Below are positions 3,958 through 32,000 of a stretch of DNA of 32,000 nucleotides, piece after piece (the first letter of the stretch is position 1; the number at the start of each line of letters is the position of its first letter). Below the pieces are notes generated by a model. It saw only the letters and a program-made list of their open reading frames with translations. It ran no database searches and had not been told where the DNA came from. The DNA lies in assembly GCA_942493095.1 (NCBI GenBank), contig OW818675.1, positions 1,470,001 through 1,502,000 on the forward strand. Reading direction: 5' to 3'. Position numbers and translations under genes: made by a program. The stretch comes from Candidatus Electronema halotolerans (lineage in GTDB: Bacteria; Desulfobacterota; Desulfobulbia; Desulfobulbales; Desulfobulbaceae).

Positions 3958-5031
3958 TCACCCCATCTGCAAATCCAGCACATCCACCAGCCTGCCGTCG
4001 TAGTCATTGACGACCAGCGTCTTCAAGGCGGGGTAGTTGTCCACGCGAATGCTCAGGCTGCTCACTGTTGAGCCGCTGAAGCCGGGCAGGACAAATTCTC
4101 CGTTCCCGGTTGCCGGGACAATCATTCCTGCCGCGCCGCCGTCCTGCATATCGATCAGCTTGAAGGCCAGAATATCATCCTGCACGTTGTGCTCGACCTG
4201 CACCCGCAGCCGCGCATCCGCCGTTAGTTCGCCTGCAATGACAACCACATAAGGCGCAGCCGCGCTGCCGGTGAGAATGCCGGTCTCCGGCGGATTGGGA
4301 TGACCGAGTTGCGCCACGGTCAGAGGGCTGCGCAGTCTGCCGCCGTAGGTGCCGGTGCGCACCGACCCGTGTTCGGTGTACTGCGTGGTGATGGCTGCCA
4401 TGTATTCGTTGTTCCACGGGTGGGCCTGCGCCGGAATGTGCGGCACCAGCAGGATTTGGCTGTCGCTGACGCTGGCAAACTGGGTCTGCACCGCGCTGCC
4501 GCTCTCAGTTCCGGCCAGCACGCAGCGGCAGTCCGGCGACTGCCAGTCAAAGGCGAGATTGCTGCCGCTCAGGCGCAGCACACCGTCCGGGTTGAGGACA
4601 TTGCTCAGGCCGGTGGCAGTGTCCGCAGCCGCCAAGATCGCGGGCATCTTTTCTGTCCACGGCTCGCGCACCAAGGTCGCCTCAGCCTGAAAATCCTTGA
4701 CATACGGCTGTGAAGCCGAGATGTTCAGGCCGAGAAGCTGCTCCATAGGCGGCAGCGGCGCGTCCGGCGCATCCAAGCGGGCGTGAAAGGCGGGCCGGAA
4801 GGTCATGGCATCCTCCAAGGTGACTTGCAGGCCCTCCAGCAGCATGGCCTGTATCTCCTCCATTGCCGAGCGCAGATGGTTCTTGATCTGCTCCGCCGAG
4901 GAGCCGGGATTCTTCAGGGCGACACGGGCCGCCACCTCGTCGTAGCCGCCTGTGCCCTGCGGGACAAAGCGGAGCCGGTAGGAGGCGGGTTTGGTCAGGG
5001 GATTCCGCTCGATGCGATAGTGAACAGCCAT
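3958..5031 (-). CDS. HU-like DNA-binding domain protein with DUF4469-like Ig-fold region and an extra C-terminal domain
   Basis: The start is taken at ATG 5031 (MAVHYRIERNPLTKP...), preceded by SD GGGAGGA. The N-terminal ~90 aa resemble the HU_HIG type histone-like domain. The following region (…GVLRLSGSNLAFDW…ILLVPHIPAQ…) resembles DUF4469. The ORF-track extension to 5349 runs through a non-coding repeat array. Confidence 0.6.
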   Translation of the reverse strand: MAVHYRIERNPLTKPASYRLRFVPQGTGGYDEVAARVALKNPGSSAEQIKNHLRSAMEEIQAMLLEGLQVTLEDAMTFRPAFHARLDAPDAPLPPMEQLLGLNISASQPYVKDFQAEATLVREPWTEKMPAILAAADTATGLSNVLNPDGVLRLSGSNLAFDWQSPDCRCVLAGTESGSAVQTQFASVSDSQILLVPHIPAQAHPWNNEYMAAITTQYTEHGSVRTGTYGGRLRSPLTVAQLGHPNPPETGILTGSAAAPYVVVIAGELTADARLRVQVEHNVQDDILAFKLIDMQDGGAAGMIVPATGNGEFVLPGFSGSTVSSLSIRVDNYPALKTLVVNDYDGRLVDVLDLQMG

Positions 5032-9400: not shown

Positions 9401-11302
9401 TGCCGTCAGCCGAACCGTGTACAGGCCGGGTTCTTTGTAGGCATGACTGACCTGCCCGCCCTGCCCTGCTGCCCCGTCGCCAAAATCCCACGTATATAAA
9501 CTGATGCCGCCGTCCGCATCACGGGACTTGTCCGCATTGAAGCTGACCGGGACATTGGCGGCAGCCACTGAGGCCGAGGCCGTGATGACCGGCACTGGGG
9601 CGGCATTGATTCTGATGCTGCCGAGCATCTCGCTGCTGCTGTTGCTGAGGCCGGAGTCATCCTCAATTTGCAGCCGGATGCTATAGAGACCGGGCTGCTG
9701 CCACGCATGCTTGACCGTCTCACCCCTGCCCTGCTCGCCTTTTTCGCCGAAATTCCATCTGTAGGCCGTGATCGTGCCGTCACTGTCCAAGGACTGGCCC
9801 GCATCCAGCATCACTTCCTCGCCCGGCGCAGCCACCCGCTTGAACGTGAATTTCGCCAATGGCGCGGCATTGATCAAAATGCTGTGCTTGGCCTGATCAG
9901 TCGTGCAGAGACCCGGCCCGTCGTCCTCCACGATGAGCCGCACCTGATAGAGGCCGGGGCGGGCAAAGCTGTGCTCAATGGCCGGGCCGTTGTCTTCCCG
10001 GTCTTTGTCAAAAATCCAGCGGTAACGGATGAGTCTGCCGTCGGCATCTGCGGATGCGCTGCCGTCAAAGCGCACTTTTTCACCGGGAGCAGCACTGGCC
10101 GGGGCGGCAATCTGCGCCTTGGGCGGGGCATTGATGGTTATCGGCACTTCCACGCCCGCCTGATTGGCGACAAAGCCGGAGTCGTCCCGCACGGTCAGCT
10201 TGGCCGTGTATTTGCCCGGCTCTTGAAAATCATGAGTGATGCGGCTGCCGGTCGCGGTGCTGCCGTCGGCAAATTGCCATTCAAACTGGAGCTGGTCATC
10301 ATCCTGATCAACCGTGCCAGAGGCATCGAGCACGGCGGTATTGCAGGCGGACAACGGCGTGACCGTGACTTTCGGCTCCGGTATATGGTTGGCAGGAGCA
10401 AGAAAGGGCGGCAGCTCCAACGGAATTTCCCGGCCCTGATCATCCTCCAGCCAGAGCTGGACATAATTCACCTTGGCCGAGGAGAGCAGCACGGCAACAG
10501 TCTGGCCTTTTTCCTCGTTAAGGAGAGTGATCTTGGCGAAATCCGTGCTCTTGTCCTCCGAGCTTTTGAGTGCCACCTTTGGCCGCGCTGGCGAGGAAAA
10601 AGAGATGCGACCGCCGAAATTAGCAGTGTCAGCGTCAAAATTGGTGATTTTAAACGATTGACTTGCGGCTGGAATCGTGAAACGGATTTCTGTGTTCAAA
10701 GCCGAAGCATCCGGCACCTGCACATTCACTGCCGGAGCATAAAGGCGAAGACCGGGAACAGCCGTGTTCTTCTTTTCATCCGCTGAGATGAAGAGCTGAA
10801 ACTTGTTGCTGCCCGGGCCGGAAATGCCGTCAACCACGAGCTGAAAGAGAATCCTCCCGTCCGGGAGCCTGCCGTCCGCAGGGTTCAGAGCGGCAATAGT
10901 CCGCCAGCGGCTGTCGTAGAACGAGTTTTCGCCCAGCTCCAATGAGGCCAGCGGCGAAGCTTGGGGCAACGGCTCATCAATTTTGCGCAGATTCTGCTTG
11001 ATGGCTTGGCCGCCATAGACCAGATAGCGCACCTTGGAATTGTTATAATCAAGATCAAGCGTGCCGCCGAAATCAGCATCAAAAATGCGGACAAAAAGTT
11101 TGTCCGCAGAGCTGACATCGACTGAAAAATAAAAGACAAACCGCTGAAAATTCTCCTCAGTGACTTCCGGGCCAGTGGTGATGAGGAAATTCTGCTTTTC
11201 CGCTGCCATGACATTGCCTGCGGAGAGCAGCAGAAAAAGAAGGAGGGCGGCAATATAACGCATAATTGATCTAACAGCGGTTGGAATGCTTTGGTGAAAC
11301 AT
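6464..11302 (-). CDS. Giant secreted protein: signal peptide, ~270-aa unassigned N-terminal region, 15 tandem PKD domains
   Basis: 1612 aa. Signal peptide MRYIAALLLFLLLSAGNVMA (alternative start ATG 11263). There are fifteen W-x-F/L-G-D-G type PKD signatures (e.g. YTWDFGDG, CSWDFGDG, YHWDFGDQ, CHWDFGDG), each followed by the PG-Y-V-L-V-D pattern. I see no C-terminal anchor or sorting motif. Confidence 0.9.
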   Translation of the reverse strand: MFHQSIPTAVRSIMRYIAALLLFLLLSAGNVMAAEKQNFLITTGPEVTEENFQRFVFYFSVDVSSADKLFVRIFDADFGGTLDLDYNNSKVRYLVYGGQAIKQNLRKIDEPLPQASPLASLELGENSFYDSRWRTIAALNPADGRLPDGRILFQLVVDGISGPGSNKFQLFISADEKKNTAVPGLRLYAPAVNVQVPDASALNTEIRFTIPAASQSFKITNFDADTANFGGRISFSSPARPKVALKSSEDKSTDFAKITLLNEEKGQTVAVLLSSAKVNYVQLWLEDDQGREIPLELPPFLAPANHIPEPKVTVTPLSACNTAVLDASGTVDQDDDQLQFEWQFADGSTATGSRITHDFQEPGKYTAKLTVRDDSGFVANQAGVEVPITINAPPKAQIAAPASAAPGEKVRFDGSASADADGRLIRYRWIFDKDREDNGPAIEHSFARPGLYQVRLIVEDDGPGLCTTDQAKHSILINAAPLAKFTFKRVAAPGEEVMLDAGQSLDSDGTITAYRWNFGEKGEQGRGETVKHAWQQPGLYSIRLQIEDDSGLSNSSSEMLGSIRINAAPVPVITASASVAAANVPVSFNADKSRDADGGISLYTWDFGDGAAGQGGQVSHAYKEPGLYTVRLTAKDDSGVGNASQFAEQTVRINAPPVPVITMPEIVNTSQVVFDASKSSDADDKIIGYTWDFGDGGKAEGVNVSHVYPLPGTYMVQLRVTDASGTASATQSAQQAIRVNAPPVADAGADQLIAPGETVQFDGSRSLDQDGTISSFTWQVEDKKYTEAKFAHQFDQPGQYQVGLTVVDNDGASHSDYLTVTVNSQPVARMQALPRVEPGKEVLLDASGSTDADGGIAACSWDFGDGGKGEGRQVKHVYAEPGRYQAVLTVQDESGAANDTSTARQTVAVNFPPKAEPGKDVHTCEQFVQFDGSASIDPDQDPLAYHWDFGDQSSGQGVAVSHQFAAPGLYPVRLRVDDQTGLGNSSDAKQITVQINHPPQAVIRTAGELFCVGEHVLFDGSLSNDPEGGPLRYLWDLGDGQQVEGSNPIRVYDKAGDYPINLTVLDDSGLECNAGQARKNIQLIAAPVARAGEYIEVCSNAPAAFDGTASSGGERPIIGYAWNFGDGSTDVLAKTNHIYKDPGLYVARLTVTTPELSRCNNQAEDERKVRVLAAPQADFKASDGCVGEKLTFDASGSTAVNGESARYSWNFGDGATGNGVSAGHSYERAGRYTVRLKADKPENSVCSSSESSREIKINQPPVPRIRWSAAGKAMSFETPQAVLPNTVLHFSAAESIDEDGAVSKASWDFGDGQQAEGWFVQHSFKEPGQYAVRLTVEDDNADLSCGKAQTELPVFVIGQPALQIDGPDQVCVNQEVQYAMTGEAEQVHWDFGNGLNEQGRAVRMTFTQSGRREIHTVVDGQPGPTLTVQVLSLPELALPEQLTVLVGEELRITPVLLEESSVQPLFSWDTGDGKTLEGGAFRHSYSKPGKYIVRLRISGSSEEPACLAAEKEIAVTVLPPPELRILHEPEQVFSGGARDEVLFYTDLYADQDSWICHWDFGDGSKAEGEAVSHVFQKPGAYTVTLTLTDGSGIARKPYSFSVKIVVQGHGQF
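6467..10375 (-). repeat. Coding tandem repeat region (15 PKD-domain units of about 85-90 aa)
   Basis: The domain periodicity is visible in the translation. There are also DNA-level identities, e.g. the 25-mer CCTTGCCGCCGTCGCCGAAGTCCCA at 8698-8722 and 9208-9232 (offset 510 nt, equal to two units). Confidence 0.8.
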
Positions 11303-14154: not shown

Positions 14155-14304
14155 TATATACTGTTTGTCAGCCGCGCCTCGCCTCAAAGGGCGGGGCCTT
14201 GCTGAAGAGCACGTTGCTGTCACGCCGCAGGCACCGGAGTGCCAGACCCGCATCACGTCGTTTTTCTGTGCGGCAATTTTTTCTTTCTCAGGAGAACTCA
14301 ATTC

Positions 14305-15366
14305 ATGGCGATCTTAGACAAGGTGTTCAAAGCGGCGGTTGATCTCAAGGCATCTGACATCCATGTCCTGCCGGGTGAGCCGTTCATGGTCCGGCGGCTG
14401 GGCAAGATGATCCGGCTGAAAAGCCAGCCCCTCACCGACGCGAGCTGCCGCAAGGTGATCATGGAAATTCTCAGCCCGGAGCAGCAGCGCACCCTGCGCG
14501 AGCAGCTCCAGATAGATTTTGCCTACGAGATTCAAGGGCTGGGCCGCTTCCGGGGCAGCGCGATGTTTCACAACAACGGCCTGAGCTGCATTTTCCGGGC
14601 CATTCCCGGCAAGATTCCCTCGTTCAAGGAACTGGGCATCCCGGATGTGATGTACAAAATCTTGGAAAACCACCAAGGCATCATCTTGGTCACTGGCGCG
14701 ACCGGGCACGGCAAGACCACCACGCTCGCTTCAATGGTGGATTATATCAACAGCAACCACGCTCACCATGTTCTGACCGTTGAAGACCCGATTGAGTTTG
14801 TCCATCCGCTCAAGAAAGGAGCGATCAATCAGCGGCAGCTTGGCAAGGACACCATGTCATACGCGAATGCCCTCAAAGGCGCGCTGCGCCAGGACCCGGA
14901 TGTGATTGTCATCGGCGAGCTGCGCGATTTGGATACCATATCGCTGGCCATTTCCGCCTCTGAGACCGGCCACTTGGTCATCGGCACCCTTTCGACCTCC
15001 AGCGCGCCCAAAACGGTTGACCGGGTTATTGACTCCTATCCGGCAGGCGAGCAGAACCAAGTCCGGGCCATGCTCAGTGAGTCGCTGAAAGCGGTCTTCA
15101 CCCAGCGGCTCCTGCCCGGTGCGGACGGCACAGCCATGCACTTGGCTGTGGAGATCATGATCGGCAACCTGTCCATTGCCAATCTGATCAAGGACAACAA
15201 GACCTTCCAGATTCGCTCCACCATGCAGATGGGCCGGGCCGTGGGCATGAAGCTGATGGACGAATCAATCATCGAGATGCTTCAAGCAGGCAAAATCACC
15301 TACGATACTGCCAAGGCCAATATTGACAAGAAAGAGCTGCTCAGGCCCTTTGCCCCTAAAGCGTGA
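14305..15366 (+). CDS. pilT: PilT-family type IV pilus retraction-type ATPase (His box lacks the distal His)
   Basis: ATG 14305 follows SD AGGAGA. N-terminus ...KASDIHVLPGEPFMVRR, Walker A GATGHGKTT, Asp box LTVEDPIEFVH, Walker B DPDVIVIGELRD, PilT-type IANLIKDNK motif. The His box reads TGHLVIGTLST where canonical PilT has ...TLHT. Confidence 0.85.
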   Translation: MAILDKVFKAAVDLKASDIHVLPGEPFMVRRLGKMIRLKSQPLTDASCRKVIMEILSPEQQRTLREQLQIDFAYEIQGLGRFRGSAMFHNNGLSCIFRAIPGKIPSFKELGIPDVMYKILENHQGIILVTGATGHGKTTTLASMVDYINSNHAHHVLTVEDPIEFVHPLKKGAINQRQLGKDTMSYANALKGALRQDPDVIVIGELRDLDTISLAISASETGHLVIGTLSTSSAPKTVDRVIDSYPAGEQNQVRAMLSESLKAVFTQRLLPGADGTAMHLAVEIMIGNLSIANLIKDNKTFQIRSTMQMGRAVGMKLMDESIIEMLQAGKITYDTAKANIDKKELLRPFAPKA

Positions 15367-15371
15367 CTGCC

Positions 15372-16043
15372 ATGAAAAGAAAAATCATCGCCATCAATGA
15401 AGAGCTTTGCACTGGCTGCGGCGACTGCATCCCCAACTGCGCGGAAGGCTCGCTGCGGATCGTTGACGGCAAGGCCAAATTAGTGGCAGACAATCTCTGC
15501 GACGGCTTGGGAGCCTGTCTTGGTCATTGCCCGACTGGGGCCTTGTCAGTGATTGAACGGGAGGCGGATGCCTTTGATGAGGAGGCTGTGGAGCAATTCT
15601 TGGCAGAGGAAGGGGAGAAGGAGCCAAGCACCTGTCCTTCCGCGCAGGCGAAAACAGGCTCGTGCGAGAGCGCGAATTGGCCGGTGCAGATTCGGCTCGT
15701 CCCTCCTGCCGCGCCGTTTTTGGAAAACTGCGACCTGCTCATTGCTGCTGACTGCACGGCTGTTGCCTGTCCAAGCTTGCAGCAGGATTTCATCCAAGGC
15801 CGCAAAGTGATGATGGGCTGTCCCAAGTTTGATGACCAGCAGCTCTATGTTGACCGCTTCACCGAGCTGTTCAAAACCAGAAAACTGAACAGCGTCACCA
15901 TGCTGATCATGGAGGTGCCCTGCTGCGCGGCCATGCTGCAAATTGTCCGCAGAGCGCACAGCCAAGCTGGTGCCACGGTGCCGGTGCGGCAGGTGGTGAT
16001 TTCCACCCAAGGCGCAGTTCTCGACACGCAGAATTGGCTCTGA
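15372..16043 (+). CDS. 4Fe-4S dicluster-type iron-sulfur protein with a Cys-rich C-terminal domain
   Basis: Ferredoxin motifs CTGCGDCIPNC and CDGLGACLGHCP. The C-terminal part has further Cys (ADCTAVACP, GCPKFDD, EVPCCAAM). The start is either ATG 15372 or GTG 15363, which overlaps the pilT stop (GTGA). Confidence 0.7.
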   Translation: MKRKIIAINEELCTGCGDCIPNCAEGSLRIVDGKAKLVADNLCDGLGACLGHCPTGALSVIEREADAFDEEAVEQFLAEEGEKEPSTCPSAQAKTGSCESANWPVQIRLVPPAAPFLENCDLLIAADCTAVACPSLQQDFIQGRKVMMGCPKFDDQQLYVDRFTELFKTRKLNSVTMLIMEVPCCAAMLQIVRRAHSQAGATVPVRQVVISTQGAVLDTQNWL

Positions 16044-18392
16044 TTACTGTTGTTTGCCTTCAACCTGCTTCAGTCTGTTCTGAATGCCGACATTCTTTGG
16101 GTCAATGAGCAGAGCCTGCTTGTACTCTTCAATGGCCCGGTCATCAATGCCGCTGTCTCGATAGAAATCGCCCAAGTAGATATGAAAGGGCGCATAGTCA
16201 GGCAGATAACGGATGCCCTCCCGCAGAACTGCCGCCGCCTTGTCCTGCTCCTTGAGCTTCCGATAATGCTGGAACACAGCCATAAAATAGTATGGTTTTG
16301 GCTGCGGCTCCTGCGCAATGAATGCAAGAGCCTGTTCAAGGAAATAGCCGCTGTCCTCCTCCTTGCCTGCGGCCCGGCTCAGATTGGCGGTATCAATCCA
16401 CGCTGAAGTCAGGTCAGGAAGAATGCTGGCTGTTTCCTCTTTGGAGAAGTCCTGCGCTGTCAGCAGCGGAAAGACGCTTTTCAGCAGCCGGGGGTCATGC
16501 CGCAGCTCCTGGCGCAGAACCTTGAATGCTTCGGTCCAGTGCTTGCGAGACAGCTCAAAGTCAACCCAAGTGCTGAAAGGCCCTTCTTTCAGTTTGGCGC
16601 GGGCATAGCCGGTCTGCACTAACTTGCGGCCTTGGTCCAAATCAGTTTTGGCCACTTCCAAGCCAGCAGCCTGCAAATAATAACCCTCCATTGGCTCCAT
16701 GCGGGCGGCTTCCGTGTAGAACTGCAAGGCCTCATCATTTTTTTGCTGATATTGCCTGATATTGCCCAAGGCATAGCGGTAGTTGCTGCTGAGAGGAGCT
16801 TTTCGGGCAGACTCTTCCAGCAGTTTGTTCAGAATTGGCAGCTGTTGCTCCAAATCAAAATTGGTTGATTCAGAGACGGTTCGTGCTTGGTTGTAATAGC
16901 GGTCAGCAAGAAAAAAGCTGCCTTGCAGGCGCAGCATGGCCAAAAGGAACACGGCGGCAGTGGCAAAGATGACAATGCGCGTCGTTTTTGGGGAAGCGGA
17001 CAAAGGCAGCAGAGTGGGCCGTTTCCGGTAATGCTGCCGGGTATGACCGGCTGAGACCAGCAGGCCGCAAAGCAAGAAAAAATACAAGCTGTTGGCCCAG
17101 TTGTGCAAATTGAAATCCGTGAGGCTGAAGAAAAGCAATCCGGCAATGCCGCTGAAAGCGCCAACAGCGGTCAGAACAGACAGCCGTTCATGCCGCCGGA
17201 AAATCATCCGCCAGCCGCTCTGCAGCACAGCCATGACAAACCAAGCTGCCAAGAAGAATGCGATCAGGCCGCCGTCACTGAGCAGCTCTAAATAATCATT
17301 ATGAGCATGATCATAGATCAGGCTGTCAGCAAAGCTCTTGTATTTGGGAAAAATATCGAGAAAGGTGCCAAAGCCGGTGCCAGTGAGAGGAAAATCAGGA
17401 ATGATTTTGACTGCATCTTTCCAGATGGTCAATCGCGCATCCTGAACAGCCCCTTCATTGAAATCAACCGCCCGTTCAAACTTGGCAACAATGGCATCCC
17501 AGCTGAACCAGCCTCCGGCGGCCAGCAGGCCGAGAAGCAGGAAGAGCAGGGTCCATGTTTGAATCTTGCCCTGACTGCGGGCCAAGATGAGAAAAAAGAG
17601 CAGCATGGCAAAGGCGAGACTGAGAAAACCGCCTCGTGACTGGGCCAGCAGCACCGAGGCGATGACCACAATCACGCCAAAGCCGAAAAAGAGATGCAGA
17701 CTGGCTCCGGTGCCAGAAAAGAGATGCAGGAGCCGCTCCCGGAAGGGTTCGTCAGGGTCAGCAATTGGACGATGCCGCAGGAAAAGGGCCAGCAGCAGCG
17801 GGCAGGTCATGACCATGAACCCGGCGTACTGATTTTTATAGACCCAAGGGCCAAACGAGCCATGCACGTGCTCCATTTTCCGAATAAAAAACAAGCTGTC
17901 CGGGGCGGCGGCCCGCTGGAGCATGGAGACAAAGGCGATGAACAGGGTCAGCCAGACCACGCTGGCGACTGTTGCCGACAGCCGCCTGCTGGAGGTGAGA
18001 AGCTGAATTGTCAGCAGATAGAAGAGGAGATAACTCGTGAAGCGCAGGGCTTCAAACAGCGTGGCCTGCGGATTGATGGTCAGAGGTATCCACGAGTCCG
18101 GCGGCAGGAGATCAAGAACTGGCTGATAGACAGCAACCGTCTGCGGTGAGATGACTTGCACCGCCCCCACTGGCAGCGGCACAAGCTGAACATAGCTCCA
18201 GACAAGGAAGAGCAGAAAAGGCAGCAGGCCGGGAGACCGATAAAACTGTGCTTTGCGGCCAGGCCTGGGCCGGAACCAGAGCAGAACAGCCACGCCCGCC
18301 AGCAGCTGGGCAATGACCGTTGACCAGACCTCTGTGGTGCCAAAGGCCAGCGGGGCAAAAAAAAGAACAATGAGAAAAACAGCAAAAGCCAT
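16044..18392 (-). CDS. O-antigen ligase/polymerase-like (Wzy_C) membrane protein fused to a C-terminal TPR domain
   Basis: 782 aa. About 12 TM helices with the Wzy_C signature region (...YDHAHNDYLELLSDGGLIAF...). The last ~300 aa are TPR-like (…ALQFYTEAARMEP…, …AIEEYKQALLIDPKN…). Its stop abuts the convergent Fe-S gene stop (16043/16044). Confidence 0.8.
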   Translation of the reverse strand: MAFAVFLIVLFFAPLAFGTTEVWSTVIAQLLAGVAVLLWFRPRPGRKAQFYRSPGLLPFLLFLVWSYVQLVPLPVGAVQVISPQTVAVYQPVLDLLPPDSWIPLTINPQATLFEALRFTSYLLFYLLTIQLLTSSRRLSATVASVVWLTLFIAFVSMLQRAAAPDSLFFIRKMEHVHGSFGPWVYKNQYAGFMVMTCPLLLALFLRHRPIADPDEPFRERLLHLFSGTGASLHLFFGFGVIVVIASVLLAQSRGGFLSLAFAMLLFFLILARSQGKIQTWTLLFLLLGLLAAGGWFSWDAIVAKFERAVDFNEGAVQDARLTIWKDAVKIIPDFPLTGTGFGTFLDIFPKYKSFADSLIYDHAHNDYLELLSDGGLIAFFLAAWFVMAVLQSGWRMIFRRHERLSVLTAVGAFSGIAGLLFFSLTDFNLHNWANSLYFFLLCGLLVSAGHTRQHYRKRPTLLPLSASPKTTRIVIFATAAVFLLAMLRLQGSFFLADRYYNQARTVSESTNFDLEQQLPILNKLLEESARKAPLSSNYRYALGNIRQYQQKNDEALQFYTEAARMEPMEGYYLQAAGLEVAKTDLDQGRKLVQTGYARAKLKEGPFSTWVDFELSRKHWTEAFKVLRQELRHDPRLLKSVFPLLTAQDFSKEETASILPDLTSAWIDTANLSRAAGKEEDSGYFLEQALAFIAQEPQPKPYYFMAVFQHYRKLKEQDKAAAVLREGIRYLPDYAPFHIYLGDFYRDSGIDDRAIEEYKQALLIDPKNVGIQNRLKQVEGKQQ

Positions 18393-18404
18393 GCCAAATG
18401 GAGA

Positions 18405-20747
18405 TCAGGCTTCCTGTTCAGGTTCTGCTTTTTTTTTCTTCTTTTTTTTGCCGCTGTCCTCCTGATAATAGCTGCTGTAGCCGCTGTAGCGCGAATAATG
18501 GGAATAGTAGGAGTAATACCCGTAATAGCCCCGATCTACATGTTTTTTCTTCAGGCGGTTGAGAACGATGCCCAGCAGATGGCCATGTCCTTCCCGCAGC
18601 CGCTTGATGCCGCTGTCCAGCATCTCGTAGGTGGTTCTGCCTGCATGCACCACTACCACAGTGCCGTCGGCAATCGGCGACAGGGCCAGACTGTCTGTGA
18701 CCTGCTGCACTGGCGGCGAATCGAGCAGAACAAAGTCGAACTGCTCTTGGGTTTCCTTGACAAGCTGGACCATTCTGGTCGAGTTGAGCAGCTCCGCCGG
18801 ATTGGGTGGCACCGGCCCGGAGGTGATCAGATAAACTTCGCTGTCCGGCACTTGATGAATCAGAGTCTTATTTTCCTCAACATTGCCGGACAGATAATTG
18901 CTAAGACCGTAGTTGTTGACAATACTGAACATGGAATGCTGCCGAGGCCGACGCATGTCACAGTCAATGATCAGCACTTTCTTGTCGTTCTGGGCCAGAA
19001 TATGAGCCAAGTTCTTGGTGGTGGTTGACTTGCCCTCCTGCTGCACCATGCTGGTCATCAGAATGACTCTGGGCGGATGCTCAGGCGTGGAGAGCAGCAG
19101 GCCGGAGCGGATCAGGCGGTAGCTTTCCGCAGTCGGTGTCAGAGGATTGTCACGGACAAAGGTTTCAATATTATGCTTCTTGGGATTCATGTCCTCGACC
19201 GACCCAAGGACTGTCAGGCCGTAGCGCGTCTCAATTTCCGAACCGGATTTGACTGTGTTGTCCAAATAATCCAAGAAGAAAATCAGTCCCAGTCCGCCGC
19301 CCAAGCCGAGCACCAGACCGACTAACAGATACATTTTTTTATTCGGCTTGGAAGGAAATTTTGGCAGTTCCGCTTTTTTGACCGCCCAAATTTTGATGTC
19401 CATAGACTGGGCAGTGACATCTGTGGTCTTGATGCTGGAGGCGAGCGCTTCATAGATGGTGCGGTTCATCTCCTTGTTCCGATTGAGAATCGAATACTGG
19501 GCAAACCGTTCGTTCGTGTTCTGTAGTTCAGCCTTGGTTTCCTCCATCATCTCCTTGATGTCCCGCACTTTGGCCTTGGCCAGCTCATAAGCGTTTTTCG
19601 CCGAGGCCGTGATCCGGTCTATTTCCTGCCGCCGCGCCTGCTGCAGCACCCGCCGCTCCCCCAGAGCCTGCTGCATGGCCGGATGCTTGCGCCCGTATTT
19701 TGCCGACAGCTCCCGCACCTTCTGCTCCGAAGTCACGAGCTGAGTGCGAATCTGCCGCAGAACAGTGCTGTCAGCAAAGAGCGGAATGGTCTCCAAGGCA
19801 TCGTAATTTTTCCCGGCCCGCTCAATCTGCCGATAGATGGCCTCCTGCTCCTTTTCTTTGGTTTGCGCATCAGACAGCTCTTTGCTGAAGCCGGACAGCC
19901 GCTCCGGCAGCACCGTGAGCCGGTTCTCCACCGTGACAATGTCATTCTTGCGCATGTAGTCTTGGAGCGTCTGCTCTGCTTGGTCCAGCTTTTTCCGCTC
20001 CTCCTCAGCCTTGGCGGTCATCCACTGGAGGGCATTCCGGGCTGTGCTGGTTTTGATGTCCATAGTTTCATCAATATAGGCCTGGACCAGCGCATCCGCC
20101 ACGAGCTGGGCCATCTCCGGCTTCTCGTGAGTGTAGAACACATCTGCCAGCTTGGTGTTCCTGACTGGACTGACATCAATATTCTGCTGGATGATCTTGG
20201 CGATCTTTTGCGTGTCACTTTCTGGTTCGGCAACGATTTTTTCACTGTCGTCCTCATCTCCAGCCGCCAGCAAGGCTGCCTCCTCCTGAGCAAGCTGCGG
20301 GCTGACCAGTCCCTCAAGGGCGGCAACCGCATCACTGATCAACGAGGAGAGCCAGTCAATGACCTGAGCAGGCAGGCCCGGCTCCACTGGTTTGTCGGTA
20401 AGAAAATAATGCCGGTATTTCGTGTCAAGATGCAGGTTTGTCACCACCCGCAAGACAACGCTCTGGCTGAGTATCGTCTGAAATTGGGTTTCTTGAAAGC
20501 TGGGGTCCCAGCCTGCATACGGGCTGTTCGCGCCTTCAATCCGGCCCATGTCAAAATTTTTGTCAATCAGCACTCTGGTGGAGGCGGTGTAAAGCGGGAC
20601 TTTGGAAAAAGCGGACAGGACAGCGGCAATAACACAAATGCTGACGATAGTCACCAGCAGCCCTTTGCGTTTGGAGACAATGCGCAGATAATCACGCAGG
20701 TGCAGCTCCTTCTCCGGCCCTTCCTGGAGGGTGTCTTCAGAATGCAT
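18405..20747 (-). CDS. Polysaccharide co-polymerase / tyrosine autokinase (Wzc/GumC/EpsG-like BY-kinase)
   Basis: 780 aa. Wzz-like N-terminus with a TM helix, a long coiled-coil periplasmic region and a second TM helix. P-loop kinase domain: Walker A QQEGKST, Walker A' VLIIDCDMRRP, Walker B FDFVLLDSPP. Tyr-rich tail GYYGYYSYYSHYSRYSGYSSYY followed by K7. Confidence 0.9.
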   Translation of the reverse strand: MHSEDTLQEGPEKELHLRDYLRIVSKRKGLLVTIVSICVIAAVLSAFSKVPLYTASTRVLIDKNFDMGRIEGANSPYAGWDPSFQETQFQTILSQSVVLRVVTNLHLDTKYRHYFLTDKPVEPGLPAQVIDWLSSLISDAVAALEGLVSPQLAQEEAALLAAGDEDDSEKIVAEPESDTQKIAKIIQQNIDVSPVRNTKLADVFYTHEKPEMAQLVADALVQAYIDETMDIKTSTARNALQWMTAKAEEERKKLDQAEQTLQDYMRKNDIVTVENRLTVLPERLSGFSKELSDAQTKEKEQEAIYRQIERAGKNYDALETIPLFADSTVLRQIRTQLVTSEQKVRELSAKYGRKHPAMQQALGERRVLQQARRQEIDRITASAKNAYELAKAKVRDIKEMMEETKAELQNTNERFAQYSILNRNKEMNRTIYEALASSIKTTDVTAQSMDIKIWAVKKAELPKFPSKPNKKMYLLVGLVLGLGGGLGLIFFLDYLDNTVKSGSEIETRYGLTVLGSVEDMNPKKHNIETFVRDNPLTPTAESYRLIRSGLLLSTPEHPPRVILMTSMVQQEGKSTTTKNLAHILAQNDKKVLIIDCDMRRPRQHSMFSIVNNYGLSNYLSGNVEENKTLIHQVPDSEVYLITSGPVPPNPAELLNSTRMVQLVKETQEQFDFVLLDSPPVQQVTDSLALSPIADGTVVVVHAGRTTYEMLDSGIKRLREGHGHLLGIVLNRLKKKHVDRGYYGYYSYYSHYSRYSGYSSYYQEDSGKKKKKKKAEPEQEA

Positions 20748-20818
20748 TTCTTTGAGAGGCTAAGTATAAAAAATCGGAATGACAAGCGGAACCGGCCTGA
20801 CCGACCGGTCAGACATGC

Positions 20819-21637
20819 TCAGAAAAAGCTTTCCGGCACTTCGATGACATCATCTTGCAGCACTTTTGCATCTAAACTGACATGTTCCAGCACCTGCTTT
20901 TTTCCGTTGACAATCCGGTTGATCTTGATGCGTGAGTCCGCTGCCATGCCGGTGAAGCCGCTGGCCAAGGAGACCACTTTGAGCACGGTGATATTTTCTA
21001 TCCACGGGTAGGAGCCGGGACGTTTGACTTGTCCAGTGATGTAGCAGACCGGCGGCTCGCCCTCGGCCACTGCCACTGTTTCGCCGCCCATGATGGGAAT
21101 GTTGCTGGCGGCATCGCTGTCTTCAATCAGTTTTTTCACATCAAGGGTGACAGTCTTGCCGTTCTCGCTGGTCACTGTAATGGTGTCGCCTGCGTCTTTG
21201 CTCAAACCGCCGGCCTTGGAAATCAATTCCAGTAGGGTGGTCGGCCCGCTCAGTTCAATCAGGCCCGGTCGGTTGAACGGCCCCAGCGCGGCCACCTTCT
21301 TGCTTCTGAATTCTTCAATGTAAATTTGCACCTGCGGATTGACTATGTAGCCATCAGCAAGCATGATTTCAATTTTTCTCGCTGCGGCCGAGGTCTTGAT
21401 GCCGCCGACCCGCACGGTGCCGATGAGCGGAAAATCAATGTCTCCACTTTCTGAAACCCGGACTTTTGTCTTCAGTTCGTCGTAGCCATAAACAGAGATG
21501 GAGAGCACGTCTCCTGCGCCGATCTGATAATCCTCGGCTGCTGCGGGCAAAGCCGGCAGCAGCAGACGGCAGAGCAGAAACAGGGAGAAGATTTTCAGCA
21601 GCAGGCCAGCCGAAAAGAAGGAAGAACGTGTTTTCAT
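20819..21637 (-). CDS. Wza-like polysaccharide export protein (Poly_export + SLBB)
   Basis: 272 aa. Signal sequence, then DYQIGAGDVLSISVYG (Poly_export signature) and an SLBB-like C-terminal part (…ITGQVKRPGSYP…). Confidence 0.85.
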   Translation of the reverse strand: MKTRSSFFSAGLLLKIFSLFLLCRLLLPALPAAAEDYQIGAGDVLSISVYGYDELKTKVRVSESGDIDFPLIGTVRVGGIKTSAAARKIEIMLADGYIVNPQVQIYIEEFRSKKVAALGPFNRPGLIELSGPTTLLELISKAGGLSKDAGDTITVTSENGKTVTLDVKKLIEDSDAASNIPIMGGETVAVAEGEPPVCYITGQVKRPGSYPWIENITVLKVVSLASGFTGMAADSRIKINRIVNGKKQVLEHVSLDAKVLQDDVIEVPESFF

Positions 21638-21749
21638 AAGTAGGAACAGATGTTGAGGAATCTACAGACACATTCGCGTGCTCATCTTCTCCGTCTGCCC
21701 TGCGGCGGCACAGGCGAAAAAGATGAGCAGCAATTCAATCAGATGCAGC

Positions 21750-23159
21750 TCAGAACGATCCCCGGACACCAAAGCCGATGGTGCTGGTGTCGTAATCCAG
21801 CCCCTCGTAGTCGGAATCTTTGGTGTCGTAGCTGAAATAGGCGTTCAGGAACAGCCACTTGTTGACAGCGAACTGCACCTGCGGCTTGAAGTACCAGCGG
21901 TCATCATTGCGGGTGCCGCCGCCGAACTGCGCATACTCAGAATCTTCATAGACAAGATTGACATCGCCCCGGAGCCGGTCTGTGAACCGGTGATCAAGGG
22001 CAACCCGGAAGGAGAGCACGCTCTTGTTCTGAGCCATCTCGCTGTCTGACTGCTCAATGCTGTACTTGGCATTCAGCAGCAGGTTGCTTTTCACGGTCGC
22101 ATGCCATATTCCTTGGGTCTCGAAGTAGAAAGTTGAGTCGCTGTCATCGTAGGTGGTGTAGTAATACGGACTGCTCGGACTCAACTCGTCGTAATCAACA
22201 GACTGGATGCCGGCTTTGGCCATCAGGTTGGTTTTGACCGTGGCCTGCCAGTTGATGCCGCCTGCGAGGAAGTTGTTGTCGTTATCCGGCATTTGCTCCT
22301 CATCATACGCGGCAACAAGATACTGATATTGAGCAAAGAAGTTGGTCTTGCCGCTGTACTCGTAATAAACGGCGAGATCAAAGCCGTTGTCTGTGCGGTT
22401 CATGTAGTCATTGATATCCTCGTCATACTCCAAGAAAAAGTTTCTGTACGCCGCCTTGGCGGAAAACTTGTCCTTGGAATACCATGCCGCGCCCAGACCG
22501 AACACGTTTGAGTCATAAATACGGTCGTTCTCCTGGGTTGCCTCGGCAATGTTGTAAATATCCTGACTGTGGGTATATTTGTCCAGAGCTTGGAAGGTGA
22601 GCTTCTCGCCGGGCCGGTACTGGAACATCGCCTCAAGGTCGCCTTCTGTATGATTCAGGTCAGAATTCTCCGAGTAGGCCTTGTAGTCAAGTCCAGCGGC
22701 AAGATACGCCTGCATCCTGGTGTACACATCTGTGTCAGGCGGAGAATATTGCAGGCCGCCAATAGCAGTGTTGTCAGAGACAAGCTGGATGGGCCGCTTG
22801 GACCGTCTCGGCAGTGTCAGCCAGACAGACGGTGATATCTGGGTCAGAAAATTGCTCTTCTTGTCCGCATCGGTGTTGTAGATGTTGTCTGTCCACTCGC
22901 CCCTCGCGCCCAAGGCGGCATGAACATAGCCATTGCGATAGCCGAAGACATAGCCCTCATCAGAATCAGAAGAGGCATCCTCCTCGCCCGCATCATAAGC
23001 ATCAGCAGGTTGAGCTTCCTCTGGGCGATCCACTATGGTTGTCATCTCCTGACCGCCAGCCTCGCCGCCAGCGTCACTGCTGACCGTTGCTTCTGTCTGT
23101 GCCTGGGCCTGAGCCGCAAGGAAGAGCACCAGCACACCTGCATAATATTTCTTCATCAT
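21750..23159 (-). CDS. Outer-membrane beta-barrel protein (EPS-locus associated)
   Basis: Start at ATG 23159 or 23156, after AAAGGAGAG. Signal peptide MMKKYYAGVLVLFLAAQAQA. Alternating aromatic/hydrophilic strands throughout, with a terminal ...GFGVRGSF (C-terminal Phe). The position next to wza/wzc is like the barrel proteins of exosortase-type EPS loci; that comparison is from memory. Confidence 0.7.
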   Translation of the reverse strand: MMKKYYAGVLVLFLAAQAQAQTEATVSSDAGGEAGGQEMTTIVDRPEEAQPADAYDAGEEDASSDSDEGYVFGYRNGYVHAALGARGEWTDNIYNTDADKKSNFLTQISPSVWLTLPRRSKRPIQLVSDNTAIGGLQYSPPDTDVYTRMQAYLAAGLDYKAYSENSDLNHTEGDLEAMFQYRPGEKLTFQALDKYTHSQDIYNIAEATQENDRIYDSNVFGLGAAWYSKDKFSAKAAYRNFFLEYDEDINDYMNRTDNGFDLAVYYEYSGKTNFFAQYQYLVAAYDEEQMPDNDNNFLAGGINWQATVKTNLMAKAGIQSVDYDELSPSSPYYYTTYDDSDSTFYFETQGIWHATVKSNLLLNAKYSIEQSDSEMAQNKSVLSFRVALDHRFTDRLRGDVNLVYEDSEYAQFGGGTRNDDRWYFKPQVQFAVNKWLFLNAYFSYDTKDSDYEGLDYDTSTIGFGVRGSF

Positions 23160-23195
23160 TCTCTCCTTTGATTTTGCGTTCATTGTCCAGACAGC

Positions 23196-27534: not shown

Positions 27535-29253
27535 TCAGCGGACATAGCCTTGCTCCTCCAGATAGAGGAAAATTTCCTGCACCGCCTCTGCCGGGGTCAG
27601 CTTGGAGGTGTCAATGACGATTTCTGGGTTGGCAGGCGGAATGTAGGGATCAGAAATGCCGGTCACGCCCTTGACCAAGCCAGCCCGCGCCTTGGCATAC
27701 AAGCCCTTGCGGTCGCGCTGCTCGCAGACCTCCAGCGGCGTTGCAACATAAACTTCAATGTAGCCGCCGTACCGGCTGATCAGATGCCGGTTCTCCTGCC
27801 GCGACTCCTCATACGGGGCAATGGGCGCGCAGAGGGCAATGCCGCCGTTCTTGGTGATCTCGCTGGCCACATAGCCGATCCGGGTCACATTCAGATTGCG
27901 GTGCTCTTGGGAAAAACTCAACTCTGAGGAAAGATTCTTGCGGACAATGTCGCCGTCCAGCAGGGTGACAGGCCGGTCGCGCAGCTCCATGAACCGCACC
28001 ATCAGGACCTTGGCAATGGTCGATTTGCCAGACCCGGACAGGCCGGTGAGAAAAACTGTGAAGCCCTGTTTGGAGCGGGGCGGAAAGGAGCGGCGCAGTT
28101 CCGCAACCACGCCGGGAAAGGAAAACCATTCAGGAATTTCCAAGCCCCATTCCAGCCGGTGCCGCAGTTCCTTGGAACTGATGCTCCGCACGGTTACCTC
28201 CGTGCCGGTTTCCGCGAGCGGAACATAGCAGGAACGTTCCTCAACATAGCCCATTGCCTGCTCCGGCACCATCTCGATGCCGATTTCCTCGGCCAGCGAG
28301 GCCACTAACTGCTGGGCCGCGCCCAGCGGGTAAAAGGGTTCCATGTCGCAGTCAGCAAAGGGGTCGCCGTGATTCGCCGCAACCATGAAATGGGTGCAGC
28401 CGTAATTGCGGCGGATCAGGGCATGCCAGAGGGCCTCTCTCGGACCAGCATGACGGTCAGCCAAGGGAATGATGCCGAGCTGAATCATGTTGGCTGGAAA
28501 CTGGCGGACAAATTCCTGATAGCAATGAACATGGGTGTAATGCTCCCGATTGCCCGGATGATCCAGGCCCAAGGCGGGCTGGAGCAGGATGGCGCAGCCT
28601 GCCTGCCGGGCGGCGGCCAGTACCATTTCCCGATGGGCGCAGTGCAGATATTTTTTGGTATGAACACCAAGCACTCTGCGCCAGCCCTGCTGGAGAAAGC
28701 GGCGGCTGGTTTCCGCCGGAGTCAGACGCAGTTCCCGGAAATCATAATGAATGGGCAAAGTCAAGCCCTCCACGCAGCCGCCAAGGCACCAGTCCTTGAC
28801 TTGGGTGAACAGGGTCTGCACGCCCGGATGCCGTCTGGCCTCAGCAGTGCCATAGACCGCCTCAGCCTCAGCCTGCTTGTCCCGCTGCCAGATATCTTGG
28901 ACGGTCAGCACGGCTAAGAGAAAGCCTTCATTGTCGTTGAGAGCCACCCGGTCGCCGGGATGCAGTTTGGCGGCAAAAGCCTCGTTCACATCCAGACAAA
29001 TCGGCAGCGGCCAGACCGAATCGTCAGCCAAACGCATTTTCTGGAGAACCGACACATAATCTGCTTGACAAAGAAAGCCATTTAGAGGATAAAAGGCCCG
29101 GTTGAGCAGCCCTTCCAGATCGCAGAGCTGCCGCTGGTTCAAGTCGAGCGAGGGGAGCTGCACGGCTTCGGCCCGCAGCTGTTCAGCCCGGCGGAAATGG
29201 ACCAGCAGGCTTTCTGAATAGGGGGCGGCAAAAGAAAGAACAGGTGAGGTCAC
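27535..29253 (-). CDS. ATP-sulfurylase-like domain fused to APS kinase (Sat/CysC-type), sulfurylase motifs non-canonical
   Basis: GTG start. The N-terminal and central regions align with ATP sulfurylase (…QRQLCDLEGLLNRAFYPLNGF…, …HAGPREALWHALIRRNYGCTHF…). The C-terminal APS kinase has P-loop GLSGSGKST, LLDGD, KGLYAKARAG and GISDPY. Confidence 0.85.
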   Translation of the reverse strand: MTSPVLSFAAPYSESLLVHFRRAEQLRAEAVQLPSLDLNQRQLCDLEGLLNRAFYPLNGFLCQADYVSVLQKMRLADDSVWPLPICLDVNEAFAAKLHPGDRVALNDNEGFLLAVLTVQDIWQRDKQAEAEAVYGTAEARRHPGVQTLFTQVKDWCLGGCVEGLTLPIHYDFRELRLTPAETSRRFLQQGWRRVLGVHTKKYLHCAHREMVLAAARQAGCAILLQPALGLDHPGNREHYTHVHCYQEFVRQFPANMIQLGIIPLADRHAGPREALWHALIRRNYGCTHFMVAANHGDPFADCDMEPFYPLGAAQQLVASLAEEIGIEMVPEQAMGYVEERSCYVPLAETGTEVTVRSISSKELRHRLEWGLEIPEWFSFPGVVAELRRSFPPRSKQGFTVFLTGLSGSGKSTIAKVLMVRFMELRDRPVTLLDGDIVRKNLSSELSFSQEHRNLNVTRIGYVASEITKNGGIALCAPIAPYEESRQENRHLISRYGGYIEVYVATPLEVCEQRDRKGLYAKARAGLVKGVTGISDPYIPPANPEIVIDTSKLTPAEAVQEIFLYLEEQGYVR

Positions 29254-29585: not shown

Positions 29586-30389
29586 TCAGTTAAGCTGTGC
29601 CGGGCGGCGGAGCGGCTGGCTCTGCGGCGGTTGCCAGTCAGCCTTCAGCTCGTGCAGTTTGGCGTATTTATACCATGTTCCTTCAAAATTTCCCACTGCA
29701 ATAACAAAGCCGGGCCAGCCGTCAAGAATGCCTTTCTTCACAATATACATCTGAAAAAAGGACCAAAGGCCCCGGCTCAGGGCAGTGAACATGCCCGCGT
29801 TCCGGCCCCGCTGGCAGAGCTTTTCCGCTCCGAGGCTGGAATAGCGGTTGGCCTTGCGGGCCACTTCTTCCAGATTTTTATAGGGAAACTGCCAGATCGG
29901 CTGGCAAAGATACGCGGCAGGCTTGTCTGAGACAATCTCGTATTCCTCATGCACGGGATCGTTGCGGAAGCGCAGCGCGCCCTTGCGGAAGAGCTGCGGC
30001 TGACGGTAGTCTGGCCAGAAGCCGGAATGCCGGATCCAGCGGCCCATGAAAAAGTTGCGCCGGGGAATATAGTAGGCATCCGCCGGGCGGGGCTGGGCAA
30101 TGGCCGCCAAAATTTCATCCCGTGCTTCCGGGGTGCAGCGCTCGTCGGCATCCAAGGAGAAAATCCAGTCGTATGCGCAGGCGGCCATGGCCTGATTGCG
30201 CAGGTCGCCAAAGCCTTTGAAGTCAAGCTGCACCACCCGTGCGCCCAGCGCGGCGGCCATTTCCGCTGTGCCGTCGGTGCTGAAGGAATCAGCTACAACA
30301 ATTTCATCCGCCCAGAGCACAGAATTGACTGCGGCCTGAATCTTGTCCGCCTCGTTCCACGCTATAATGTATGCGGAAATTCTGCTCAT
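29586..30389 (-). CDS. Family 2 glycosyltransferase
   Basis: 267 aa. N-terminal ISAYIIAWNEADKI...VVADSFSTDGT and a DxD-type SLDADE. Its ATG overlaps the upstream ATPase stop (ATGA at 30386-30389). Confidence 0.85.
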   Translation of the reverse strand: MSRISAYIIAWNEADKIQAAVNSVLWADEIVVADSFSTDGTAEMAAALGARVVQLDFKGFGDLRNQAMAACAYDWIFSLDADERCTPEARDEILAAIAQPRPADAYYIPRRNFFMGRWIRHSGFWPDYRQPQLFRKGALRFRNDPVHEEYEIVSDKPAAYLCQPIWQFPYKNLEEVARKANRYSSLGAEKLCQRGRNAGMFTALSRGLWSFFQMYIVKKGILDGWPGFVIAVGNFEGTWYKYAKLHELKADWQPPQSQPLRRPAQLN

Positions 30390-32000
30390 CGCAGCGGCCT
30401 TGGCCCAGGAGGAGCTGGCCGTCTGGCCGCGCCGCCGCCTGCCAGCTGGATGACAATGTTGTCTGTCTTGCGCAGCCGCTTGGCCAGCGTCTTGAAAAGA
30501 TGATTGGATATCTCTGGATATTTTTCCAGCAATTCCTTCAGCTTGTCGCCAGGGTACTTTTTCACCTTGCTCCGGCCCACTGAAATGACTGAGGCGTAGC
30601 GGGGTTCTTGGAGCATGCAGGCCATTTCACCAAAATATTCGCCTGGCTCGGTAATTTCTGCGATTTTTTTGCCCTGCTTGAGCACTGCCACCTTACCGCG
30701 CACCAATTTGTAGAAATTGCGGTCGTCCTGATTGCCCTCCTGAATGATGATATCACCATCCTCATATTCCTCCACCGGCGGACTGACGAGATAGGGCGGC
30801 AGGGTGTCCTGATGGACAACTGTGCTGCCCTCCACCTCATCAAGACTGGTGACTCCCTGAACAGCCTTCAGAATTGCCGCTTGACGCAGGGTGTACATGC
30901 CTGACTGCACGGCGACCTTGCGAAGCTGCTCCTCAGAAACCTGCGCTTGGATGGCTTGCGCAACCTCGGTGGTGACTTCCAGCAGCTCAAAAAAGCCGAC
31001 CCGGCCCTTGTAGCCACGCCCGCTGCAGACCGAACAGCCCTTGGGGCCGTAGAGCTGAAAGCCTTCCTTGTCAATTTGCTCCTCACTGAAACCGATCTCC
31101 AGCAGCCTTTTCCGTTCGACTGTAATCGGCTGCTTGCACTTGGCGCAGAGCCTGCGGCCCAGACGCTGGGCCAGAACCATAGTCAGCGAACCTGCCAGAA
31201 TATACGGAGGAATGCCGATGTCAACCATGCGGCTGACTGTGGCCACTGCGTCGTTGGTGTGCAGGGTGCTGAAGACCAGATGGCCGGTCATGGCCGCTTT
31301 CATGGCAATCTCAGCCGTGCTGATGTCGCGGATCTCGCCGACCATGATGATGTCCGGGTCCTGCCGGAGAAAGGCCTTCAGGGCGGCAGGAAAGGTCATG
31401 CCGACCTCAACGTTGACGTTGACCTGATTGATGCCCTTGAAGTTGAATTCAACCGGGTCCTCGGCAGTGAGGATTTTTATGTCCTCGCTGTTCAAGGAGT
31501 TGAGTGCCGAATACAAGGTGACTGTCTTGCCGGAGCCGGTCGGGCCGGTGACCAAAAGCAGCCCTTGAGGCCGTTCAAGACAGCGTCTGAGGGCGGCAAA
31601 GGTTTCTTCCTCAAAACCGAGCTTGGTCAGGTTGACGTTGAGCGAGCCTTTGTCCAAAATACGGAGGACAATGCCTTCGCCGTGCAGGAGCGGCAAGGTG
31701 GAGACACGAAAGTCAACCGCCTTGTTGCGGCCCATGCGGATGCTGATGCGGCCATCCTGCGGCACCCGCCGCTCAGTGATGTTCAGCCCGGCAAGAATCT
31801 TCATGCGGGCTGAGAGAGCGTTTTTGATGGTCAACGGCAGGTTCATGGCCTTGTACAAGGAACCGTCCTTGCGGTAGCGGACCTGCATGGTCTTTTCAAA
31901 CGGCTCAATATGAATATCGCTGACCCCTTCCTGCACGGCCTTGACCAAGATGCCGTTCACCAATTTGATGATCGGCGCGTCATTGGCTGAGAACTGACCA
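30386..32000 (-). CDS. GspE/PilB-family secretion ATPase with a C-terminal cyclic-nucleotide-binding-like domain (5' end outside window)
   Basis: The frame stays open to the window edge (…GQFSANDAPIIKLVNGILVKAVQEGVSDIHIEP). Walker A GPTGSGKT, Asp box LTAEDPVEF, Walker B DPDIIMVGEIRD, His box TGHLVFSTLHTND, tetra-Cys CAKC…CSVC. An extra ~140 aa follows, with DGDIIIQEGNQDD…GEYFGEMACMLQEPRYASV (about 30449-30811). Confidence 0.85.
   Translation of the reverse strand, partial: GQFSANDAPIIKLVNGILVKAVQEGVSDIHIEPFEKTMQVRYRKDGSLYKAMNLPLTIKNALSARMKILAGLNITERRVPQDGRISIRMGRNKAVDFRVSTLPLLHGEGIVLRILDKGSLNVNLTKLGFEEETFAALRRCLERPQGLLLVTGPTGSGKTVTLYSALNSLNSEDIKILTAEDPVEFNFKGINQVNVNVEVGMTFPAALKAFLRQDPDIIMVGEIRDISTAEIAMKAAMTGHLVFSTLHTNDAVATVSRMVDIGIPPYILAGSLTMVLAQRLGRRLCAKCKQPITVERKRLLEIGFSEEQIDKEGFQLYGPKGCSVCSGRGYKGRVGFFELLEVTTEVAQAIQAQVSEEQLRKVAVQSGMYTLRQAAILKAVQGVTSLDEVEGSTVVHQDTLPPYLVSPPVEEYEDGDIIIQEGNQDDRNFYKLVRGKVAVLKQGKKIAEITEPGEYFGEMACMLQEPRYASVISVGRSKVKKYPGDKLKELLEKYPEISNHLFKTLAKRLRKTDNIVIQLAGGGAARRPAPPGPRPLR

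Follow-up and report, generated by a model that had tools for sequence, protein, structure and literature searches.

The window analysed here is a stretch of 32,000 nucleotides (nt) from the cable bacterium Candidatus Electronema halotolerans (Desulfobulbaceae; contig OW818675.1, positions 1,470,001 to 1,502,000), and its minus strand carries at one end the 3' part of a pilB gene (30386..32000), the product of which is almost certainly a PilB ATPase with a true C-terminal cyclic-nucleotide-binding (CNB) domain. The best explanation of this architecture, by analogy with CNB domains in other proteins and with a probability of roughly 0.55, is that cyclic AMP (cAMP) or cyclic GMP (cGMP) directly controls the pilus extension motor through the CNB domain. 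The second messenger known to control pilus and secretion ATPases is cyclic di-GMP (c-di-GMP), acting through MshEN domains or FimX/PilZ adaptors, and known control of pili by cAMP is transcriptional, through Vfr/CRP-type regulators. If the CNB domain acts on PilB, the protein would represent a direct cAMP/cGMP motor switch, an unstudied kind of control.

The open reading frame (ORF) is uninterrupted from the window edge at position 32000 to a TGA at 30386-30388 and comprises 538 codons including the stop, or 71% of the gene. The N-terminal ~217 residues, corresponding to the MshEN/N1 region, fall outside the window. The 537 translated residues are 100% identical to the C-terminal end of a 754-residue PilB of Candidatus Electronema halotolerans (P0001), on which the full-length features described below were read, and the layout of this protein is MshEN (PF05157), T2SSE and cNMP_binding. 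The missing N-terminus, which the original prediction (made from the letters of the window alone) had proposed to retrieve from the adjoining sequence, is thereby available and bears an MshEN domain.

The motor core of the ATPase, which consists of N2D and the C-terminal domain (CTD), occupies 30830..31987 on the minus strand, as does every other feature of pilB given here, and matches PF00437 with an E value of 1.5e-133 over residues 5-390 of the partial product. A script-located Walker A motif, GPTGSGKT (31523..31546), a Walker B region or Asp box, DPDIIMVGEIRD (31325..31360), a His box, GHLVFSTLHTND (31250..31285), and a tetracysteine zinc-binding motif, CAKC ... CSVC (31019..31147), are present as in PilB/GspE-type ATPases, and Walker A, Walker B, the His box and the four cysteines are invariant in alignment A3. 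The original prediction of a GspE/PilB-type ATPase with canonical motifs therefore stands and can be refined to PilB, because P0001 reaches 734.8 bits on TIGR02538, the PilB equivalog for type IV-A pilus assembly ATPases (cut-off 675.65), whereas its score of 548 bits against the GspE model TIGR02533 remains under the cut-off of 630. The window fragment alone, from which the N-terminus is absent, scores 644.5 bits on TIGR02538. On these grounds, the gene is most likely pilB, encoding the predicted hexameric extension ATPase of the type IVa pilus machine.

The nearest solved structures are those of PilB from Myxococcus xanthus and Geobacter (E values of 1e-153 to 1e-148). The PilB proteins of G. 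metallireducens, G. sulfurreducens and M. xanthus (5TSG/5TSH, 5ZFR, 6OLJ, 3JC8) have the same MshEN/N1-N2D-CTD layout, share the Walker A/B, His box and tetracysteine motifs and are ~50% identical in the motor core, and the AlphaFold core superposes on Geobacter PilB 5TSG/5TSH with a Foldseek target template modelling (TM) score of 0.95-0.98 at 50% identity. A comparison with these relatives reveals a major difference in that all of them end with the CTD, at residue ~611 of P0001, whereas the Electronema protein runs ~143 residues further and includes the CNB domain, as expected from the earlier remark that such proteins normally end before the extension.

The extension begins with a linker between the ATPase and the CNB domain that contains a conserved L-P-x-Y-L-V-x-P motif (30779..30823), followed by the CNB β-barrel (cNMP_binding, 30518..30772), which encloses the phosphate-binding cassette (PBC), by the hinge and long C-helix (αB/αC) of the module (30434..30517) and by a disordered, basic tail rich in Ala, Pro and Arg (30389..30439), the sequence of which differs among orthologues. 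On the partial product, PF00027 is matched over residues 410-494 with an E value of 2.2e-16 and 60 bits, compared with a gathering score of 27.5, a match far above chance. The ~140-residue CNB extension originally placed at ~30449-30811 is thus recovered by a hidden Markov model search, in agreement with the limits of 30434-30823 found here, and the peptide quoted with the prediction and the Ala/Pro/Arg-rich tail are likewise present where they were placed. In searches of the PDB with a profile of the linker plus CNB domain, built from 14 diverse segments (alignment A1), CNB domains of PKG, PKA-R, HCN and SthK are retrieved with per-domain E values down to ~1e-13.

An AlphaFold2 model of the segment, with a predicted local distance difference test (pLDDT) score of 86.4, shows a short helix, an eight-stranded barrel, a cassette helix, a hinge helix and a long C-helix; the last two correspond to residues 92-101 and 103-129 of the model, and the hinge/C-helix part superposes on the C-helix region of CRP. 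The pLDDT drops below 50 in the tail (residues 739-754). Foldseek relates the CNB segment with a probability of 1.00 to CRP, Vfr, MtbCRP, HCN, SthK and PKG, and the query TM score reaches 0.81 for CRP and Vfr. The eight-stranded barrel, PBC helix, FGE...R-x-A motif, hinge and long C-helix are common to PilB and to CRP/Vfr/MtbCRP, PKA-R, PKG, HCN and SthK, but in PilB only a short helix is left of the N3A part, the N-terminal helical region. Unlike the CRP, PKA and HCN types, PilB contains no helix-turn-helix (HTH), kinase or channel, and its output would be the ATPase that lies N-terminal to the CNB domain. A CRP-type transcription factor, in line with the name 'CRP-like cAMP-binding protein' that some sources give to fragments, was considered and rejected, since no HTH family is detected and the protein ends 15 residues past the C-helix.

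The possibility that the extension is a frameshift, read-through or assembly artefact joining PilB to a small CRP-like gene was evaluated with relatives from two sources. The best 120 database homologues (at least 78% identical) all carry the three-domain fusion, and they include Electronema, Electrothrix, the cultured Desulfobulbus propionicus and D. elongatus, and strain B35. Additionally, when single genomes representing each GTDB species were scanned with a pattern derived from the CNB domain, 382 matches were confirmed by tblastn, of which the best 80 are all from Desulfobulbales (Electronema, Electrothrix, Desulfobulbus and Desulfogranum) and are the basis of all 80-locus counts given here. 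The CNB domain is in frame with the PilB core in 79 of these 80 genomes, among them closed chromosomes and cultured strains of Desulfobulbus and Desulfogranum. The single exception is the draft genome of Ca. Electrothrix aarhusensis MCF (L028), in which the PilB/CNB junction is out of frame at about 3998-4360, probably owing to a sequencing or assembly error and not to a genuinely split gene.

This draft locus, together with the existence of stand-alone CNB proteins of ~250 residues and related sequence, is what could be cited for an artefact; however, the frame is continuous in the window as well as in the 79 independent genomes, and the linker motif LPAYLVNP or near variants of it are found in all 80 loci and are retained in divergent fusions. 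The ratio of nonsynonymous to synonymous substitutions (dN/dS) of the CNB part is ~0.03 against the nearest relatives, near that of the ATPase core, a value obtainable only against L006 and L012, as dS is saturated for the other relatives. The CNB part is under strong purifying selection. An artefact is thus refuted as an explanation and its probability is negligible, and the fusion, as judged from these genomes, is fixed across the order Desulfobulbales. A survey of the spread of the fusion and of its flanking genes had been recommended along with the prediction, and the spread shows that the extension is not peculiar to one assembly.

The cassette, FGEMACMLQEPRYAS (30590..30634), displays the FGE...R-x-A motif and ends in PRYAS, in line with the FGE and P-R-x-A positions initially recognised. 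In the canonical PBC motif, FGE[LIV]A...[PV]R[x]A, the Arg binds the cyclic phosphate (Kannan et al. 2007, PMC2246266), and FGEMACMLQEPRYAS fits the canonical cAMP-type motif of that study. The G, E, R and A of the cassette motif do not vary in any of the 80 loci, and conservation of the Arg still reaches at least 90% in fusions that are only 33-44% identical. By analogy with well-characterised CNB domains, the domain probably binds a cyclic mononucleotide.

Much more divergent C-terminal fusions (P0125/P0271, P0126, P0128, P0135, P0138 and P0129/P0277) are revealed by an exhaustive HMMER search of 50%-identity representatives and belong, where named, to Thermodesulfobacteriota or Ca. Adiutrix; P0128 and P0138 also pass the PF00027 threshold. 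A homologue search with the divergent profile returned short fragments only, from Desulfobacterales, Thermodesulfobacteriota and, as a CNB-only fragment, one Nitrospinota. In P0129/P0277 (Ca. Adiutrix sp.), an extra low-complexity extension of ~190 residues, rich in Ala, Pro and Gly, lies C-terminal to the CNB domain. The reverse layout, in which an N-terminal cNMP_binding domain precedes MshEN and T2SSE, occurs in the uncharacterised proteins P0164 (843 residues) and P0255 (797 residues). These join the same families but with the CNB domain at the N-terminus, which makes an independent fusion event probable, and the pairing of CNB and PilB seemingly arose more than once. The representative library also contains proteins of ~1000 residues with two complete T2SSE domains in tandem (P0150, P0151, P0168, P0173, P0181, P0182, P0194, P0227, P0228, P0241, P0246 and P0249).

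At the other end of the protein, PF05157 is present and the MshE-related c-di-GMP motif NF053729 scores 45.5 against a cut-off of 38 over residues 30-82 of P0001. The MshEN signature comprises two 24-residue motifs, [RKPN]hGxxhhxx[GAS]hhxxxxhxxxhxx[QNKRYWST], separated by 5 residues (PMC5013675). The 24+5+24 spacing is kept in P0001, but the relaxed published regular expression is not strictly matched in either half, as two hydrophobic positions of motif 1 are occupied by Gln and Gly3 of motif 2 is replaced by Ser. Binding of c-di-GMP by the MshEN domain is accordingly possible but uncertain. Because MshEN is retained in the full-length protein, the CNB domain is an addition and not a replacement. 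The original prediction had contrasted the C-terminal CNB domain with the N-terminal, MshE-type c-di-GMP control known for the family: the C-terminal CNB domain is confirmed, whereas the contrast does not hold, as the same protein also has an MshEN domain outside the window.

Vibrio cholerae MshE and other MshEN ATPases (PMC5013675) likewise hold a second-messenger sensor inside a pilus ATPase; that sensor is N-terminal and c-di-GMP-specific, whereas the Electronema PilB adds a predicted C-terminal sensor of the cAMP/cGMP type. Another parallel is the cAMP-regulated mycobacterial acetyltransferase Pat, in which a CNB domain fused to an enzyme acts as an allosteric switch and to which the PilB CNB domain gives a weak NCBIfam match, although the catalytic partner and the domain order differ and only the general logic is shared. 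Literature searches for a PilB/GspE-CNB fusion found no paper describing such an architecture, consistent with the statement made at the outset that no characterised C-terminal fusion of this kind was known, and the CNB classification of Kannan et al. (PMC2246266) contains no PilB/GspE-CNB class. The domains themselves are already visible in automated annotation, which calls the D. propionicus protein a 'cyclic nucleotide-binding protein' and includes precomputed Pfam matches. A familiar motor and a familiar sensor are thus present in a combination that is unstudied.

A possible mechanism can be outlined for direct control of the motor by cAMP or cGMP, in which ligand binding, the identity of the nucleotide, and the direction and target of regulation are all modelled on how CNB domains work elsewhere. 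Across Desulfobulbales, PilB has gained a C-terminal CNB domain tied to the last CTD helix by the short conserved linker. Either cAMP or cGMP would bind the canonical cassette and induce the usual CNB movement of the hinge and C-helix. This movement may be relayed through the linker to the ATPase CTD, which is proposed because the CNB barrel lies only ~15 residues after the last CTD helix, or may pass between protomers by pairing of C-helices as in CRP. As a result, the hexamer would change in conformation or protomer packing, in its ATP turnover or in how it docks to PilC/PilM. A cyclic mononucleotide would consequently gate pilus extension, and hence surface or gliding motility and attachment, and the CNB input would add to any c-di-GMP input at MshEN.

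That nucleotide binding regulates pilus assembly is, on this analogy, about an even bet. The further view that PilB in Desulfobulbales, including the cable bacteria, is a dual second-messenger-gated motor, responding to cAMP/cGMP at the CNB domain in addition to the input at MshEN, is more tentative and falls somewhat short of even odds. If this were true, a post-translational route would lead from redox, oxygen or sulfide sensing, via nucleotide cyclases, to the gliding and positioning of filaments. The Desulfobulbales are ecologically important as sulfate reducers and as electricity-conducting cable bacteria, and what part type IV pili play in the motility of cable bacteria is not yet clear (PMC10580974). 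Since cultured Desulfobulbus species have the same gene, the proposal can be addressed biochemically now.

Several observations weigh against direct control by cAMP or cGMP. Immediately after the cassette Arg, Desulfobulbus has Ser, the cable bacteria Electronema and Electrothrix have Tyr or Phe, and some others have Thr, so that the nucleotide cannot be named. In other CNB domains, this position contacts the nucleotide, and the lineage split therefore suggests that the ligand preference may have shifted; the Tyr or Phe beside the Arg, which is specific to the cable bacteria, may retune ligand specificity. The cassette is degenerate in some divergent members, with the Glu lost in P0271 and P0130 and both the Gly and the Arg lost in P0138, which indicates that not every member of the wider family binds nucleotides. 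The full-length AlphaFold2 model has a predicted TM score (pTM) of 0.48 and a linker pLDDT of ~58, and the placement of the CNB domain relative to the ATPase is of low confidence; the orientation of the two is left unfixed by this model, and no docking claim is made. Additionally, no pilA, pilC or pilMNOPQ lies beside pilB in the window or in the loci of Electronema sp. V4 and D. propionicus; a PilT-family ATPase is encoded 15 kb from pilB in the same window.

The variable residue and the degenerate cassettes would also suit a CNB fold that takes no part in cAMP/cGMP signalling and instead binds another small ligand or serves as an oligomerisation or partner-docking module of the PilB hexamer. 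CNB folds of the CRP/FNR superfamily also bind heme, chlorophenols and other ligands (PMC2246266), and the predicted long, CRP-like C-helix could pair protomers. However, families that bind other ligands typically substitute the cassette Arg (PMC2246266), whereas G, E, R and A are all invariant in the 80 Desulfobulbales genomes, and the best profile matches of the CNB segment are true cAMP/cGMP binders. Such a role is accordingly rather unlikely, and a cyclic mononucleotide remains the favoured ligand.

The pilB stop overlaps the start of the next gene as ATGA (30386..30389). This gene, 29586..30389 on the minus strand, encodes a GT2-family glycosyltransferase of 267 residues (PF00535, E 1.7e-19, 70.8 bits against 23.3), and both the gene and the overlap agree with the original reading. 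The DxD motif is present as DAD, the best relative in the PDB is GmaR (E 9e-11), and no specific NCBIfam equivalog is reached. Gene neighbours were compared among the window and the loci of Electronema sp. V4 and D. propionicus, as well as by ORF clustering of the 80 loci. In Electronema sp. V4 and D. propionicus, the GT2 gene is the sole conserved neighbour of pilB, with a 4-nt overlap, and the upstream genes differ. An orthologue follows pilB in 75 of the 80 loci by tblastn and in 72 by ORF clustering; its start is at most 25 nt from the pilB stop in 72 of the 75, and an exact 4-nt overlap, ATGA or GTGA, occurs in 54/80 genomes. From this arrangement, the GT2 gene appears to be co-transcribed and is probably translationally coupled with pilB. 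A promoter and terminator scan of the pilB-GT2 region gave a signal no better than that of shuffled sequence.

Past the GT2 gene, a heptosyltransferase-like GT9 gene in convergent orientation and a further GT2 gene lie on the opposite strand in 49 of the 80 loci, and the D. propionicus locus also contains a Wzy_C ligase-like gene and an MsbA-like exporter of the ATP-binding cassette (ABC) type. The heptosyltransferase-like gene and second GT2 gene are of the lipopolysaccharide (LPS)-core type, which places the GT2 gene at the edge of such a cluster. We take the enzyme to resemble WaaE/LgtF-type LPS-core glucosyltransferases, an assumption that draws on synteny. Most likely, the GT2 protein would serve envelope glycan synthesis of the LPS-core type and not the pilus machine.

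Directly downstream of the GT2 gene, at 27535-29253 on the minus strand, lies a gene for a bifunctional sulfate adenylyltransferase/adenosine 5'-phosphosulfate (APS) kinase, that is, a 3'-phosphoadenosine 5'-phosphosulfate (PAPS) synthase (NF004040, 830 bits). Among the loci compared, it stands beside the GT2 gene only in Electronema (L006, L007 and L013, with remnants in L001 and L008), and its position hints at a sulfated glycan. An exopolysaccharide (EPS) assembly and export locus at 16044-23183, also on the minus strand, encodes a Wzy_C+TPR protein, a Wzc-like tyrosine autokinase, a Wza/EpsE-like exporter and a BBP2_2 outer-membrane barrel, the last with a weak match to the PEP-CTERM-associated TIGR03016. 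This PAPS/EPS neighbourhood of pilB-GT2 is confined to Electronema.

The linkage to the GT2 gene had been interpreted as tying the ATPase to glycan synthesis rather than to pilin genes, and in its fuller form this alternative holds that the ATPase powers glycan- or envelope-linked secretion or assembly, with GT2 as a partner, and not type IV pili. The overlapping pair is conserved across Desulfobulbaceae while pil genes are not adjacent, the EPS export locus and PAPS synthase lie downstream in the window, and M. xanthus PilB is reported as a regulator of EPS production (PMC5544727). However, the protein passes the PilB equivalog cut-off and fails that of GspE, and it shows 50% identity with Geobacter PilB in the core; the genes beyond GT2 are of the LPS-core type and lie on the opposite strand, and the PAPS/EPS context exists only in Electronema. 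The pairing with GT2 is conserved only within Desulfobulbaceae: divergent fusion genes have no GT2 gene; in one case pilM comes next, and in another the following genes are unrelated. The initial interpretation was therefore overdrawn, and the alternative is improbable, somewhat more so than a CNB fold with another ligand. The pilB-GT2 pairing is real and old within the family, and it is no proof that the ATPase works for glycan synthesis and not for pili.

An Rfam scan of the window gave zero matches. A gene pair at 14239-16043 on the plus strand begins with the PilT/PilU-family retraction-type ATPase, which scores 423.7 bits against TIGR01420 (cut-off 319.1) and whose stop overlaps (GTGA, 15363-15366) the start of a gene for a 226-residue protein with 4Fe-4S dicluster motifs. 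A pilus ATPase and a ferredoxin-like protein are an unusual pairing, here in an electroactive organism. A protein of 1612 residues with 14 PKD repeats, presumably a surface protein, is encoded at 6464-11302 on the minus strand.

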